From positions 1 through 64,000 of the IMG/VR virus record IMGVR_UViG_3300031873_000003: a stretch of DNA of 64,000 nucleotides, one strand, 5' to 3'. A model generated the notes under the pieces. The model did no database searches and had not been told where the DNA came from. It saw only the letters and a list, made by a program, of their open reading frames with translations. Of this stretch, positions 2,414 through 33,877 are shown in pieces. Made by a program: the position numbers and the translations under genes. Each line of letters begins with the position of its first letter. The stretch's first letter is position 1. This DNA comes from a virus.

Positions 2414-3457
2414 TCATTTAGGAAACTCCCAACTTGGAATAACACTGCTAAATTTTTTAAAAATCAATTCATACCGATAGCAATCTAAACCCAAACTTAA
2501 TGCAATTTCATGACTTTTACGTGATTGAGTAACCATAAGAAGTTTAGAAGATTCTTCAGGAAAATATTTTCTGAATCTTTTAATTTTAGTTATACTTCTT
2601 GAATCAAACCACCCCTTAACTTCTATCCATTTATCAAGAGTCTTATTATAAAAATCAGGAGTAAACGAAACCGAACCCCTTCTTATTCCTTCAAAATAAA
2701 AATCTTTTGGCTCATATTCCCATTCATAACCTAAAAAGTTCATATAACGAGCATAGTTGGCCTCAACCGTACTTCTAAAAAATTTATTATCCAAATCTGG
2801 CCTTTTACCTCCACGTGTCCTACTATATGGGTTTCCCTGATTTTTATTTGTATTTAAAGTTCCATTTTTAATTCTGGTTTGCAATGCCTTTTCTGCTCTT
2901 TTTTCCCAATATTCCTTAGAACAAGAATTCATGAAAACTTTTGATTTTTTACCAATAATTTTTTTTGTCTCTTCTGAAAATTTCTTCCCAAGATTCCCTC
3001 TTGGATGACCATATTTTTTTATTCTTTCTTTTCCTGCATTGATCATGTTTTCTCTACATAATTCTGTAGCCGGTCTTTTATAAGATGTAATTTTCAAATT
3101 ACTTGCCCTACAGGCAATAGCAGCCCTACTTCTACCCATCTTTAAAGCTATTTCGTTTAAAGATATGGAACTATCCCTACTTCCATACAAATCTTTAAGT
3201 ACAGCATCTTCTTTTTCAGACCACTCGTCAGATTCAATTATTCCCCGTTTCGACAATCTTTCCCATACAGATTGACCACACATATTAAATACTTGAGCAA
3301 CTTTCCAAACATTCTTAAGACGTGAATAAGATTCAATTAATTCAAAGTCAGTGGCTTTTTGCATTCCTTTTTTTTCTATCCCAATATGGACTATGGCATC
3401 GGGGACATACTCTAACTTCTTGATTTCTTGGATTCCATTCATAATCACACCTCTCAC
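2414..3457 (-). CDS. putative homing-type endonuclease (HTH/NUMOD3-like repeats plus PD-(D/E)XK domain)
   Basis: FRSTVEANYARY...WEYEP...FTPDFY...WIEVKG; LGKKFSEETKKIIG; markedly AT-rich. Confidence 0.7.
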   Translation of the reverse strand: MRGVIMNGIQEIKKLEYVPDAIVHIGIEKKGMQKATDFELIESYSRLKNVWKVAQVFNMCGQSVWERLSKRGIIESDEWSEKEDAVLKDLYGSRDSSISLNEIALKMGRSRAAIACRASNLKITSYKRPATELCRENMINAGKERIKKYGHPRGNLGKKFSEETKKIIGKKSKVFMNSCSKEYWEKRAEKALQTRIKNGTLNTNKNQGNPYSRTRGGKRPDLDNKFFRSTVEANYARYMNFLGYEWEYEPKDFYFEGIRRGSVSFTPDFYNKTLDKWIEVKGWFDSRSITKIKRFRKYFPEESSKLLMVTQSRKSHEIALSLGLDCYRYELIFKKFSSVIPSWEFPK

Positions 3458-3556
3458 ATTTTAATTGTTTTTTAATTTTTACTTTCATTTAATCTCCTGT
3501 GTGATTACAAATAACATATTTTAGATAACTTGTCAAGTCATTCGGGGCATGGTTTT

Positions 3557-30592: not shown

Positions 30593-31618
30593 ATGGGAAG
30601 ACAGGTTACGGCAAAAGAGTTGGATCTGGATGATGGGTACGAGGAAAGGGATGATGTCCCTGCTGGCGAGGGTCCCGATAAGGATTCACCCGAAACCAAA
30701 TTTAAGGGCGCACCCGATCATGGCGCAATAGGGGCAGAAGTAGTTGAAGAGGAAGTGGAAGAAGCAAAGGCACGGCAGAAAAAGGCTGACAAAGACCGAG
30801 CGGCAGAGGAGTCAGAAAAAGTAGAGGGAGGGGAAAATGAAAAAGAACAACCCCTTCAATACAAAGACCAGGTCGCCGCTGAAAAGGCCGTCAGAGAAGC
30901 CAAAAGGAAGATGACGGAGGCCACCACAAAGGCTGCGAAGTTACAAAGCATTGTCACAGACCTTGAAAAACGTGTGCAAACAGCCTCCAGTGAAGCTCCC
31001 AATACGGCTCCTGCCGAAAACCCCTGGGATATGAAACGCCAGAAGGTTGCCGATGACACCATAACCAAGGCTGCGGCCATTGCGTCTCCCGCACCACCAC
31101 AGGACAGGGATGATCCAGACTTCGACGCCAAGTGGACCGATTATCAAAAGAAGATGGGGGAATACAACGCAAAGGTAGCAAGAGCGTGGGCGGATGCGCA
31201 AACAGAGATTGCCAATCTTGCAATCGAAGAGCGTGAGGAAGCCAAAAAAAACAAAGAAACCGTTATCTTCGCTGTTGATAACGCACTTGAGGAAGCTGGA
31301 CTAATCACCGACAAGTCGTCCCAGAAAGAGAAAGATAGCGTACTGAAACTCTTCTGGTCGATGTCGGGAGACGTATCAAAGTCTCTTCCAATGGAAGACC
31401 AGATCAAACAGACCGCCGATCTGTGTAAGGATTTTGTTGATGAACTTAGAGGCAAAGAGAGGGAGCGTGTCAAGAAAGAGAAAATTAACCAGGACGATCT
31501 ACAGGTCTTGGGACGTGGCTCCAGAGTAACCACCCAAAAACAACCGGAGATCACTCTAACCATAGGGGAAGCTCAAAGAGCAGTTATGGAAAGGAGAAGA
31601 CTCCGCCGTAATCCATAA
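30593..31618 (+). CDS. capsid scaffolding protein
   Basis: Acidic N-terminus, coiled coil, basic tail; immediately upstream of the MCP. Confidence 0.72.
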   Translation: MGRQVTAKELDLDDGYEERDDVPAGEGPDKDSPETKFKGAPDHGAIGAEVVEEEVEEAKARQKKADKDRAAEESEKVEGGENEKEQPLQYKDQVAAEKAVREAKRKMTEATTKAAKLQSIVTDLEKRVQTASSEAPNTAPAENPWDMKRQKVADDTITKAAAIASPAPPQDRDDPDFDAKWTDYQKKMGEYNAKVARAWADAQTEIANLAIEEREEAKKNKETVIFAVDNALEEAGLITDKSSQKEKDSVLKLFWSMSGDVSKSLPMEDQIKQTADLCKDFVDELRGKERERVKKEKINQDDLQVLGRGSRVTTQKQPEITLTIGEAQRAVMERRRLRRNP

Positions 31619-31631
31619 GGAGGAATATATC

Positions 31632-33139
31632 ATGGCAGAAATGACATGGGAATTTAGTGCACCATCAGGCGTCAATGTAGGCGCCATTAAGGAGTGATTC
31701 TTAATGCAAACCCAGAATTTGCTGGAAACACCGAGAATCCAACACTACTTGCCAGAAGGCAGTGAAAACGTGCTTGGTGCGGTCAATCAGCAGGCAGAAC
31801 AACCCTTAGCGAATGCTATGCCAACTCTTTACGAAGAGGTAGGTTGTTCGGCCCCAGAGACTTACAATGGGCATCTCTTACGAGAGATGGTGATAAAGTC
31901 CGGCCCTCCGGCGACGGAAGGGATGAGCCGCTACAAAAATTCCGCTATAAGTTCGAAGCTCCGTGAACAGTCGATTGCCGAGTCCAAGTTCATGGATTTC
32001 GTCAGGACGGAACCGGGTTTCGGAAAAAAGCGCGGAGAATCTATCACCATTACACGGGCTGATATTTTGACACAGCCTACCAGCGCCACCCTCTCCGAAC
32101 ACGATCGGATTCCTGTGGACGACTTTTCTCTGTCTACCACAGCTATCACAGTGTCGGAGTATGGCCGAGCAGTAACATTTACTCACATGAGTCAATTGCT
32201 TTCAAGGTTTGACCCACAAGACCCGATCCAGAAGGCTTTGCGGAAACAGATGACCAAGGCGCTGGACAGGCTTGCGGCAACAACCATGAAGACGACCTAC
32301 CTTATTTACGCTCCAACCTCATTGACGGGTGGAACGTTCATGGAGGACGGGACGATTGACACGGCGGCCTTAGTGAACGTCAACATCGATCACCTTGGGG
32401 CCATCAGGGATGCCTTTGCGGACACCTACGTCGTAGACCCCTACGAGGGAGACGACTACATTGGGCTGCTCTCAACAAAGGCCCTCAGAGGAATCAAGTC
32501 TGACGAAAATTTTGAGACTTGGAAACAGTATCTCCGGGAAGGAGACACCCTGCACAATTCCGAGGTCGGAAAGGTTGAGTCTATTCGGTGTATCGAGATC
32601 AAGGATACCAGTTGCCTTGCCAACAACAAGGGAACGGGATCTGTTCTTGGAGAAGGGATCATCTTCGGAGATGACTTCTGCGCCATGATCGAGGCAGAAA
32701 CGCCAGAGGTTAGGGTACAGGTCAACTTCGGACAAGATCATGGTAGAGTGAACTCAGCAGCCTGGTACGGTGTTGAACCCAACTACTTGAATTAATTGGG
32801 GAATGGCACCATTAAGGAGCGATCTTTAATGAAAAACCCTGAATTTGCTGGAATAACCGAGAATCCGACACTACTCGCCAATGGCAGTGAAAATGTGTTC
32901 GGTGCGGTCAATCAGCAGACAGGACGATCCTTAGCGTCTTCAAACGCTTTGCCAACTCTTACCGAAAGAGGTAGATCGTCCGGTTTCAGAGGCCACCAAG
33001 GGGCATCTCCACAAGGAGATGATGGTATGGTCCATCCCACCGGCGACGGATGGGGAGCCAATGCGTAGGCTTAGGTTTAGTTTGGCCGTTGACTGCCACG
33101 GCAGGAAAAGTCCGAGGGGCGTTCATAAGTTCCTCGTGA
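31632..33139 (+). CDS. major capsid protein, spliced: join(31632-31672, 31931-32773, 33064-33139), 319 aa
   Basis: Splicing gives MAEMTWEFSAPSGV|YKNSAISSKLR ... DHGRVNSAAWYGV|VGLGLVWP...; GKKRGESITI, EYGRAV, EVGKVESIRCIE are N4-gp56-like MCP motifs; AGGAGG RBS before 31632. Confidence 0.88.
31673..31930 (+). ncRNA. group I intron 1 (258 nt, ORF-less)
   Basis: P1 GGCGU/GCGCC with U-G wobble; P AATTTGCTGGAAA, Q AATCAGCAGG, R CAGAGACTTA, S ATAAAGTCC; terminal G; P10 TGTAG/CTACA. Confidence 0.88.
32774..33063 (+). ncRNA. group I intron 2 (290 nt, ORF-less)
   Basis: P1 GGUGU/GCACC; AATTTGCTGGAAT, AATCAGCAGA, TTCAGAGGCCA, TATGGTCC; terminal G; homologous to intron 1. Confidence 0.86.
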
Positions 33140-33151
33140 TAATTGAGGAAT

Positions 33152-33288
33152 TTTAAGAATGATAGCGGCGGGAATCGCCGGTACTGCCAGTCGAGGCACT
33201 GTTAGTCGAGCCAGGGGGCGAAAACCCTCTGTCCTTGCCCGTGCCGTTGAAGCTGGAAGCCCCCGCCTTTAGGCGTGGGGTAATTCAC
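33152..33288 (+). mobile_element. orphan IS605 right end / omegaRNA module A
   Basis: ILRMIAAGIAGTAS TnpB-tail remnant; GAAGCCCCCGCCTTTAGGCGTGGGGTAATTCAC. Confidence 0.72.
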
Positions 33289-33388
33289 ATAGGGCAGGAA
33301 CTGCCCAAATCAACGTTTGGGGAGAGGCGGTGTATCAATGCCCTTCAACGAACCAAGAAGCCCCGTCCGTAAGGGCGGGGTAGTTCAC
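33289..33388 (+). mobile_element. orphan IS605 right end / omegaRNA module B, in tandem with A
   Basis: AGGGCAGGAACTGCCC...GAAGCCCCGTCCGTAAGGGCGGGGTAGTTCAC. Confidence 0.75.
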
Positions 33389-33427
33389 ACAATCTTACGC
33401 TAAGGCGTAAAAAAGGAGGTAACAACG

Positions 33428-33877
33428 ATGGCTTACACAGATTCTAAGTGTTTATGTATTGGTGAAGGAGAAGCAACATCAGCTACTTTAGGTTTTGCCG
33501 CAAGTGCAACGGTTGTTTGCTTGGTGAGACAGCCCTGTACCCTTTATGCGGTTGGTGCTCTGGTCCGGGTAGTCATGGATACAAATGCCGCAGCCATAGT
33601 GGTGACTCGAAGAGTTATCCCGAATAGCGATGTCGGTGCAACGGCGGTGGCTACCGTTACCCTTCCAACCCTCACCGCTGCGGGGAAGATTGTCTATAAG
33701 GGAGGTGTTAATCCGCAGACCGTCGCAAATCTTCTTCCTGTCAAGCTCAATGCTGGGGATGAATTAAAATTTGTTGCGGATGGTGGAGGAGGGTCTTATT
33801 ACTGGAAGCCCTGGTTTGAGGCATATCCTCGACCAGAAACGATGGATAACAACACTGACTTTATTGAAAGTGCATAA
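33428..33877 (+). CDS. putative capsid decoration/cement protein
   Basis: Beta-rich 149 aa after the MCP; AGGAGG RBS. Confidence 0.55.
   Translation: MAYTDSKCLCIGEGEATSATLGFAASATVVCLVRQPCTLYAVGALVRVVMDTNAAAIVVTRRVIPNSDVGATAVATVTLPTLTAAGKIVYKGGVNPQTVANLLPVKLNAGDELKFVADGGGGSYYWKPWFEAYPRPETMDNNTDFIESA

Follow-up and report, generated by a model that had tools for sequence, protein, structure and literature searches.

A phage major capsid gene predicted to contain two sibling ORF-less group I introns

The stretch of DNA analysed here, referred to as the window, comprises 64,000 nucleotides (positions 1-64,000) of IMG/VR record IMGVR_UViG_3300031873_000003, an uncultured phage whose full record of 93,790 bp (~94 kb) is rated complete by CheckV. 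The major capsid protein gene in the window is interrupted by two inserts, one at Val14 (site 1) and one at Val295 (site 2), each of which splits the valine codon after its second base beside an invariant glycine (Gly13 and Gly294). When the three exons are joined they give a 319-aa frame with a ribosome-binding site in front of it and a TAA directly after its TGA stop (Table 1). This arrangement, including the cut points, had been proposed in a first-pass annotation made from the sequence and proved correct to the base, as did the location of each insert after the U of a U-G pair, the G at each 3' end and the Gly-Val context. The protein of the open reading frame track at this position (31704-32795, 363 aa), which the same annotation had held to have a false start and a false end, does indeed start inside intron 1 and stop inside intron 2.

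Table 1. Coordinates in the window of the capsid gene elements, the intron guides and the relict start region
Feature	Positions	Strand	Description and basis
Ribosome-binding site	31617..31623	+	AAGGAGG, with 8 nt between it and the ATG; visible in the sequence itself
Exon 1	31632..31672	+	41 nt; MAEMTWEFSAPSG and codon positions 1-2 of Val14, ending ...GGCGU; gapless homologue alignment, intronless alleles
Intron 1	31673..31930	+	258 nt, putative ORF-less group I, terminal G at 31930; RF00028, structure, covariation, MFE
Guide of intron 1	31680..31685	+	GGCGCC; forms P1 with exon GGCGU and the intron C; splice-site U.G
Relict start region of intron 1	31689..31706	+	AAGGAG (P2 5' strand) and ATG in J2/3; equals the RBS and start of the LAGLIDADG ORF of L011
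Exon 2	31931..32773	+	843 nt, residues 14-295, ending ...GGUGU; PHROG, Pfam, homologues
Intron 2	32774..33063	+	290 nt, putative ORF-less group I, terminal G at 33063; RF00028, MFE fold, covariation
Guide of intron 2	32805..32810	+	GGCACC; pairs with exon GGUGU (GGUGU/U)
Exon 3	33064..33139	+	last base of Val295, 24 codons and TGA (33137-33139); homologue C-termini align (...WYGVVGLGLVWP...)

The exon frame runs into a stop 23 nt into intron 1 (31695-31697) and 20 nt into intron 2 (32793-32795), and early in-frame stops of this kind are usual in bacterial group I introns (PMC3984707). An interruption of the gene, taken with nothing further, would also fit an intein, a site of translational bypass or frameshifting, or an insertion sequence, readings to which we attach a next to negligible probability: inteins are excluded by the two stops, the 258 and 290 nt are far longer than known bypass gaps, and an insertion sequence is opposed by the lack of a transposase and of terminal repeats and by an RNA core that is conserved with covariation. 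Beyond the capsid stop, the ~290 nt up to the next gene at 33428 (33140-33427, +) are GC-rich, contain inverted repeats and have no convincing ORF.

The exon boundaries are fixed by the relatives of the gene. With exon 2 alone as the query 307 homologues were found, and the closest of these (70-90% identity) are mostly exactly 319 aa long. The spliced 319-aa product aligns with 20 homologues of 70-90% identity without a gap across either junction, in the contexts ...APSGVYKN... at site 1 and ...AAWYGVVGLGLVWP... at site 2, and the predicted junction peptides of the spliced protein are SGVYK and AAWYGVVGLGLVWPLTATAGK, respectively. The capsid gene is uninterrupted in nine of the 11 related viral contigs (denoted by L-numbers, with P-numbers for capsid homologues), and in three intronless ones (L007, L012 and L038) the sequence at site 1, CAGGCGT/CTACAA, is that of the joined exons of the window, the slash here and below marking the junction. 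Alignment to intronless homologues had been named as a check on the splicing proposal; intronless alleles exist, and the homologues do not align through the inserts.

As to the identity of the protein, exon 2 matches a PHROG major head protein at 3.6e-9 and Pfam PF25209 at 27.6 bits, where the cut-off is 27. Against TIGR04387, the N4-gp56 equivalog with a cut-off of 60 bits, both exon 2 (41.6 bits) and the homologue P0001 (37.7 bits) fall below the threshold. On these scores the capsid protein is only a distant relative of the N4-gp56 family, and the naming of its homologues by JGI is looser than the NCBI cut-off. Because the HMM evidence for capsid identity is modest, P0001, which is intronless and 90% identical, was folded. 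The AlphaFold model, calculated with a 40-sequence alignment, has a pLDDT of 81 and a pTM of 0.78, and its top PDB matches in Foldseek are all HK97-fold phage capsids (NF5, Pan3, GP4, HK97 and N4), with E-values of 2e-13 to 1e-10. Site 1 lies in the N-terminal arm (residue 14) and site 2 on the long C-terminal strand (residue 295). A gene for an acidic, coiled-coil-like and scaffold-like protein is situated upstream of the capsid gene and is kept in four of the related contigs (L011, L035, L034 and L033); in L011 a tRNA gene (451-524, +; 56 bits) lies upstream of it. Among isolated phages the nearest capsid proteins are only 27% identical.

Both inserts match the group I intron family RF00028 of Rfam over model positions 1-253. 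With lax settings on the 1.8-kb region, intron 1 scored 42.1 bits (E 6.8e-9) and intron 2 scored 26.6 bits (E 3e-4), both below the gathering score of 50, which is the curation threshold of one model and not a structural criterion. In gathering mode Rfam finds neither intron, and a lax scan extended to the whole window loses both as well, because the filters discard them. One Rfam family alone exceeds its threshold in the window, an int-alpA RNA at 24306-24381 (+; 42.5 bits against a gathering score of 35.8), and beyond the window a HEARO RNA (HNH endonuclease-associated RNA and ORF) is found at L046:9425-9655 (-), genome positions 87425-87655, with 108 bits against a gathering score of 83.

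A secondary structure comprising P1-P2-P3-P4-P5-P5a-P5b-P6-P6a-P6b-P7-P8-P9.0-P9 was derived by hand. The two introns are 75-83% identical, depending on the alignment, and 84 of the 85 hand-derived pairs are kept in both, 13 of them by double changes. The P/Q/R/S core common to both inserts and the covariation of P7, which is GACUU/AAGUC in one intron and GGCCA/UGGUC in the other, are present as first described. The covariation extends strongly through the core in a set of seven ORF-less family members, in which 97.2% of the pair cells are standard-paired, compared with 33-44% in controls with slid partners, and double changes occur in 43 of the 81 pairs; these pair counts are somewhat inflated by an alignment fitted to the hand-derived structure, although the margin is large and none of 500 shuffles reached any of the measures. 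Double changes include the P3/P7 pseudoknot (four of four pairs in P3 and two of five in P7) and P9.0. The latter, formed by the two bases before the terminal G and the bases just after P7, co-varies by site, being GG/CC at site 1 and AU/AU at site 2, and therefore provides support for the 3' splice sites.

Minimum free energy folding gave dinucleotide-shuffle z-scores of -3.0 for intron 1 and -3.2 for intron 2. The fold of intron 2 recovers P1, P2, P3, P4, P5, P5a/b, P6, P8 and P9, while in that of intron 1 P1 is recovered and P3-P5 are missing. Intron 2 has a 24-nt extra hairpin in the loop of P1, and its P10 is weak, a 4-bp match inside the loop that does not adjoin the guide. GNRA loops are found at L2 and L9. 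Since only 4 nt (ACAA or CCAA) separate P7 from P3' in both, the introns lack P7.1/P7.2 and are not of the IA type. The IA type is usual for the introns of T4 (td/nrdB) and Twort, and the Twort ribozymes have P7.1/P7.2. Neither insert contains a homing-endonuclease gene, in agreement with their description as ORF-less, and they are the only two introns in the whole genome. Taken together, the model matches, structure and covariation go far beyond what chance would give and support the interpretation of the inserts as a homologous pair of ORF-less group I introns that interrupts the capsid gene.

Splicing, and its autonomy, we infer from the same sequence data. It is conceivable, if quite improbable, that splicing is not autonomous and that, after loss of an endonuclease or maturase, a protein of the host or phage or the sibling ribozyme is needed. 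Some LAGLIDADG proteins are maturases (PMC3984707), the Rfam scores are below threshold, especially for intron 2, and P3-P5 are absent from the predicted fold of intron 1; against this, compensatory changes preserve every core helix in both introns, the GNRA loops are in place and three other family members (L015, L018 and L019) are ORF-less with the same compact core.

The guide sequences bear on whether the introns are spliced. P1 can be formed at both sites, with a U.G at each 5' splice site. At site 2 the third base of the glycine codon and the opposing base of the guide change together: they are U and A in the window, C and G in L036, and G and C in L042, so that exon GGU stands opposite guide GGCACC in the window, GGC opposite GGCGCC in L036 and GGG opposite GGCCC in L042. 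A guide that tracks a synonymous change in the exon would be hard to explain without selection on P1 pairing, and hence on splicing. This argues, together with the intact pairs of both introns, against the inserts having ceased to splice and the gene being a capsid pseudogene in a defective or chimeric genome, as might be considered for a record that is a metagenome assembly. The exons are moreover undamaged and 90% identical to intact homologues, the same intron alleles are present in independent samples, and the CheckV-complete genome has no second capsid gene, which makes a pseudogene very improbable.

Among the relatives, occupancy of the two sites varies, with alleles carrying neither intron, an intron at site 1 only, at site 2 only or at both; most carry neither. 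In L036 site 1 is empty and site 2 holds a 259-nt ORF-less intron, and L042 has an intron at site 2, with site 1 off the contig. The C-terminus of the homologue P0009 is a read-through of an L042-type intron, and P0011 diverges directly after WYGV. In L011 an intron lies exactly at site 1 and only there; it is 661 nt long, with a 198-aa ORF, and its first 39 nt are identical to those of intron 1. The AAGGAG and ATG with which this ORF begins are retained in both window introns, and in intron 1 the ATG is the false start of the ORF-track protein. From this relict ATG a frame stays open over 31704-31930 (+), and the corresponding stretch of intron 2 is open over 32829-33068 (+), 76 and 79 codons running to or just past the 3' splice site. 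In unspliced RNA the frame from 31704 would yield the 363-aa chimera reported by gene callers. The two open frames were considered as remnants of an in-frame deletion of the endonuclease, a reading that was rejected as the copies are frame-shifted with respect to each other and to L011 at the R element, so that they share no conserved peptide; they are probably due to chance.

Related ORF-bearing introns are found in more distant capsid genes. In L035, whose capsid gene is 36% identical, the intron (1409-2073, -) follows GGT, between Gly and Ile, 2 nt upstream of site 1, with its guide matched to CGGU, a position that may reflect either sliding of the intron or an independent insertion. Three further contigs (L033, L034 and L016) have introns after ...VKFR, at about residue 35, in capsid genes of 27-29% identity (two scorable). 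The ORFs in the introns of L011, L035, L034, L033 and L016, which sit in the P6 loop, resemble the I-CreI/I-MsoI type of LAGLIDADG protein. While the L011 ORF was not recognised by Pfam alone, an alignment profile of the intron ORFs did recognise the family, matching I-MsoI (1.7e-7), I-CvuI (2.6e-6) and I-CreI (6e-4) in the PDB; Pfam LAGLIDADG_1 matches two of four intron ORFs at 7e-4, and the motif WLAGIIDGEG is invariant in the four. By these profile matches they are single-motif LAGLIDADG homing endonucleases, which is not the commonest type of endonuclease in phage introns (PMC3984707).

The wider family was seeded by a motif search across all viral contigs, rather than a search of capsid genes, that gave 22 matches, about half of which proved on screening by core elements not to be introns. 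A covariance model built from the two window introns found relatives scoring 48-96 bits among other viral contigs and two metagenome alleles scoring 277-289 bits. A scan of genome contigs found no relative, and blastn of intron 1 against isolated phages gave no match. Four of the six family lineages are in capsid genes. In capsid genes of the N4-gp56-like type at least four positions are occupied (Val14, 2 nt upstream of it, about residue 35, and Val295), with one more in an unrelated HK97-fold capsid gene (L019/L026); outside capsid genes, members of the family interrupt an ATPase gene (L018) and a short gene (L015/L031/L032). The member at L019:10990-11201 (+), also in L026, interrupts a phrog_3922 capsid gene directly after ...KERYG, at a proposed junction in a locus that contains N; its RYG context resembles the WYG of site 2, but the cut comes directly at the end of the Gly codon, whereas that of site 2 is 2 nt further on. 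The member at L032:2494-2715 (+), also in L015 and L031, is a 222-nt ORF-less intron seven codons into the short gene, upstream of an ORF at 2813-3514, and comes directly after a free-standing GIY-YIG gene (1763-2461), an arrangement that recalls collaborative homing.

In a tree of the intron cores (188 alignment columns) both window introns form a clade with those of L036, L042, L011 and L035 (support 100/99). Within it the four ORF-less introns group together (85/97), the ORF-bearing site-1 introns fall outside this group, and the site-2 introns group at 78/80. Common to the ORF-less copies, and missing from the other members, are a longer P5b and a branched P6. It would seem, with moderate support (78-85% bootstrap), that the ORF-less form is derived and arose at site 1 and that, by parsimony, site 2 was colonised from there. 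Intron 1 had also been considered as a recombinant mosaic, as its termini agree with L011 at all 10 informative sites there, while the core agrees with the site-2 introns at 20; this was dropped, since three lineages cannot show incompatibility and plain descent with changes limited to the site-defining termini gives the same pattern.

Likeness between the two sites is limited to positions -5 to +1 (GGYGU/C). The exon and guide at site 2 of L036 are the same as those at site 1 of the window (GGCGU/C and GGCGCC), and the L036 intron is also, at 82%, the site-2 copy most like intron 1. The changes from intron 1 that are common to all of the site-2 copies are confined to P2, P9.0 and the 3' tail. 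That the intron moved from site 1 to site 2 is plausible, and is favoured by both the tree and the shared GGCGU/C target. Guide-directed insertion through RNA, for example by the reverse splicing suggested in the first-pass annotation, is compatible with these findings and is given close to an even chance as the route by which the intron spread.

The introns might also be real and removed and the second copy have arrived by DNA, either through a break made in trans at or near site 2 by an endonuclease, followed by repair from the copy that has the intron, or through recombination between intron copies; we regard this as possible without being probable. The enzyme could be that of a co-infecting L011-type phage, as active-looking LAGLIDADG genes are present in the introns of relatives within the same family, or the product of a free-standing LAGLIDADG-like gene of the phage itself (17336-17785, -; hhalign probability 92%). 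In cyanophage psbA, ORF-less introns are known to be mobilised by free-standing endonucleases. No reverse transcriptase is encoded by the present phage, and mobility by reverse splicing is without direct experimental support according to a review that names relaxed endonuclease specificity as the alternative (PMC3984707). A DNA route is at odds, however, with the likeness of the sites, which is as long as P1, whereas a LAGLIDADG site spans 18-22 bp, and with the finding that all of the site-2 copies are ORF-less and share the derived core features of the ORF-less site-1 copy. The free-standing ORF, moreover, has 150 aa and a classical LAYLAGAMDADG motif, yet is 14 kb distant and only 21% identical to the intron enzymes, and it has no match in Pfam. 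Whatever the route, an insertion can persist in an essential gene only where the guide fits.

Returning to guide-directed insertion, a broader proposal can be made tentatively, and we consider it rather unlikely as a whole: the family would be a capsid-gene specialist that moves within and between capsid mRNAs by insertion of the reverse-splicing type, with L036 representing the state just after a jump and the guides of later alleles having been re-tuned to synonymous changes in the exon.

It is highly probable, from the evidence as a whole, that this phage has a single capsid gene containing two sibling ORF-less group I introns, which are spliced to give the mRNA of a 319-aa HK97-fold major capsid protein. 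Most simply, an ORF-less branch that arose at site 1 would later have come to occupy site 2. In the late transcript each intron would fold into a group I ribozyme in which the guide (GGCGCC or GGCACC) pairs with the 3' end of the preceding exon as P1, with a U.G wobble where the cut is made. A guanosine taken up from solution and held at P7 would attack this 5' site, after which the terminal G of the intron, placed by P9.0, would replace the guanosine and the exons would be ligated. Two such events would be needed for each capsid mRNA, and the in-frame stops in the introns would halt ribosomes ahead of the ribozyme core.

The statement in the first-pass annotation that group I introns of phages lie mostly in genes of DNA metabolism requires a qualifier, as capsid-gene introns have been published for LittleE and, as cited in the same paper, Tuc2009 (PMC3706429). 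The LittleE intron, probably of group I, has a LAGLIDADG-like ORF, and RT-PCR together with sequencing of the protein N-terminus established that it is spliced (Pope et al, 2013; PMC3706429); an ORF-less sibling of it is found in a tail gene of BAKA/Optimus (PMC3706429). As in LittleE, there is here an intron in the N-terminal part of the capsid gene, with an exon 1 ending in U, an intron ending in G, an ORF-less sibling elsewhere and intronless relatives that define the junctions. In LittleE and BAKA, however, each gene has one intron, the sibling is in another gene and the ORF runs on the other strand, whereas here two siblings share one gene; and in contrast to the demonstrated splicing of LittleE, splicing is here predicted and the ORF-bearing form occurs only in relatives.

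Three group I introns in one gene, orf142 of the Staphylococcus phage Twort, are credited to Landthaler & Shub (1999) as cited in PMC6669764. That gene resembles the present one in having several related ORF-less group I introns, with one splicing event for each, and differs in that P7.1/P7.2 are lacking here and the interrupted gene is the capsid gene. The jumbo gut phages called Jug have ~18 small (~206 nt) group I introns per genome, with terL divided into two or three, and metatranscriptome reads support the splicing of 37 of 76 introns (PMC12880540). These likewise are uncultured phages in which essential late genes are cut by short ORF-less introns detected with covariance models; the examples considered here include no capsid gene, whereas the present genome has its only two introns there. 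Siblings at different sites are also the classical circumstantial case for reverse splicing among the group I introns of rDNA (PMC1299323; PMC3984707). There too the siblings lie within one transcript and their sites share only a few guide-pairing bases, although those introns are in eukaryote rRNA and the present ones are in the mRNA of a bacterial virus, where the site-2 guide of L036 is still that of site 1. Capsid-gene introns and phage genes with multiple introns are thus already published, and what is added here is the allele series and the repeated association of the family with capsid genes.

Gene callers report the 363-aa chimera at this locus and routine Rfam scans miss both introns, so that capsid genes of this kind are under-counted in viral metagenomes. 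The natural alleles, with neither, either or both introns, with and without the ORF and with three combinations of guide and exon, are a ready-made test system for intron movement and guide re-tuning. If the family does retarget itself between capsid mRNAs, it would be the clearest natural series so far of the retargeting of a group I intron in a protein-coding gene, a pathway described as without direct evidence (PMC3984707). For the phage itself, with hundreds of capsid subunits in each particle and two ribozyme reactions for each message, splicing must be efficient, and the double splicing could be a point of regulation or of vulnerability.
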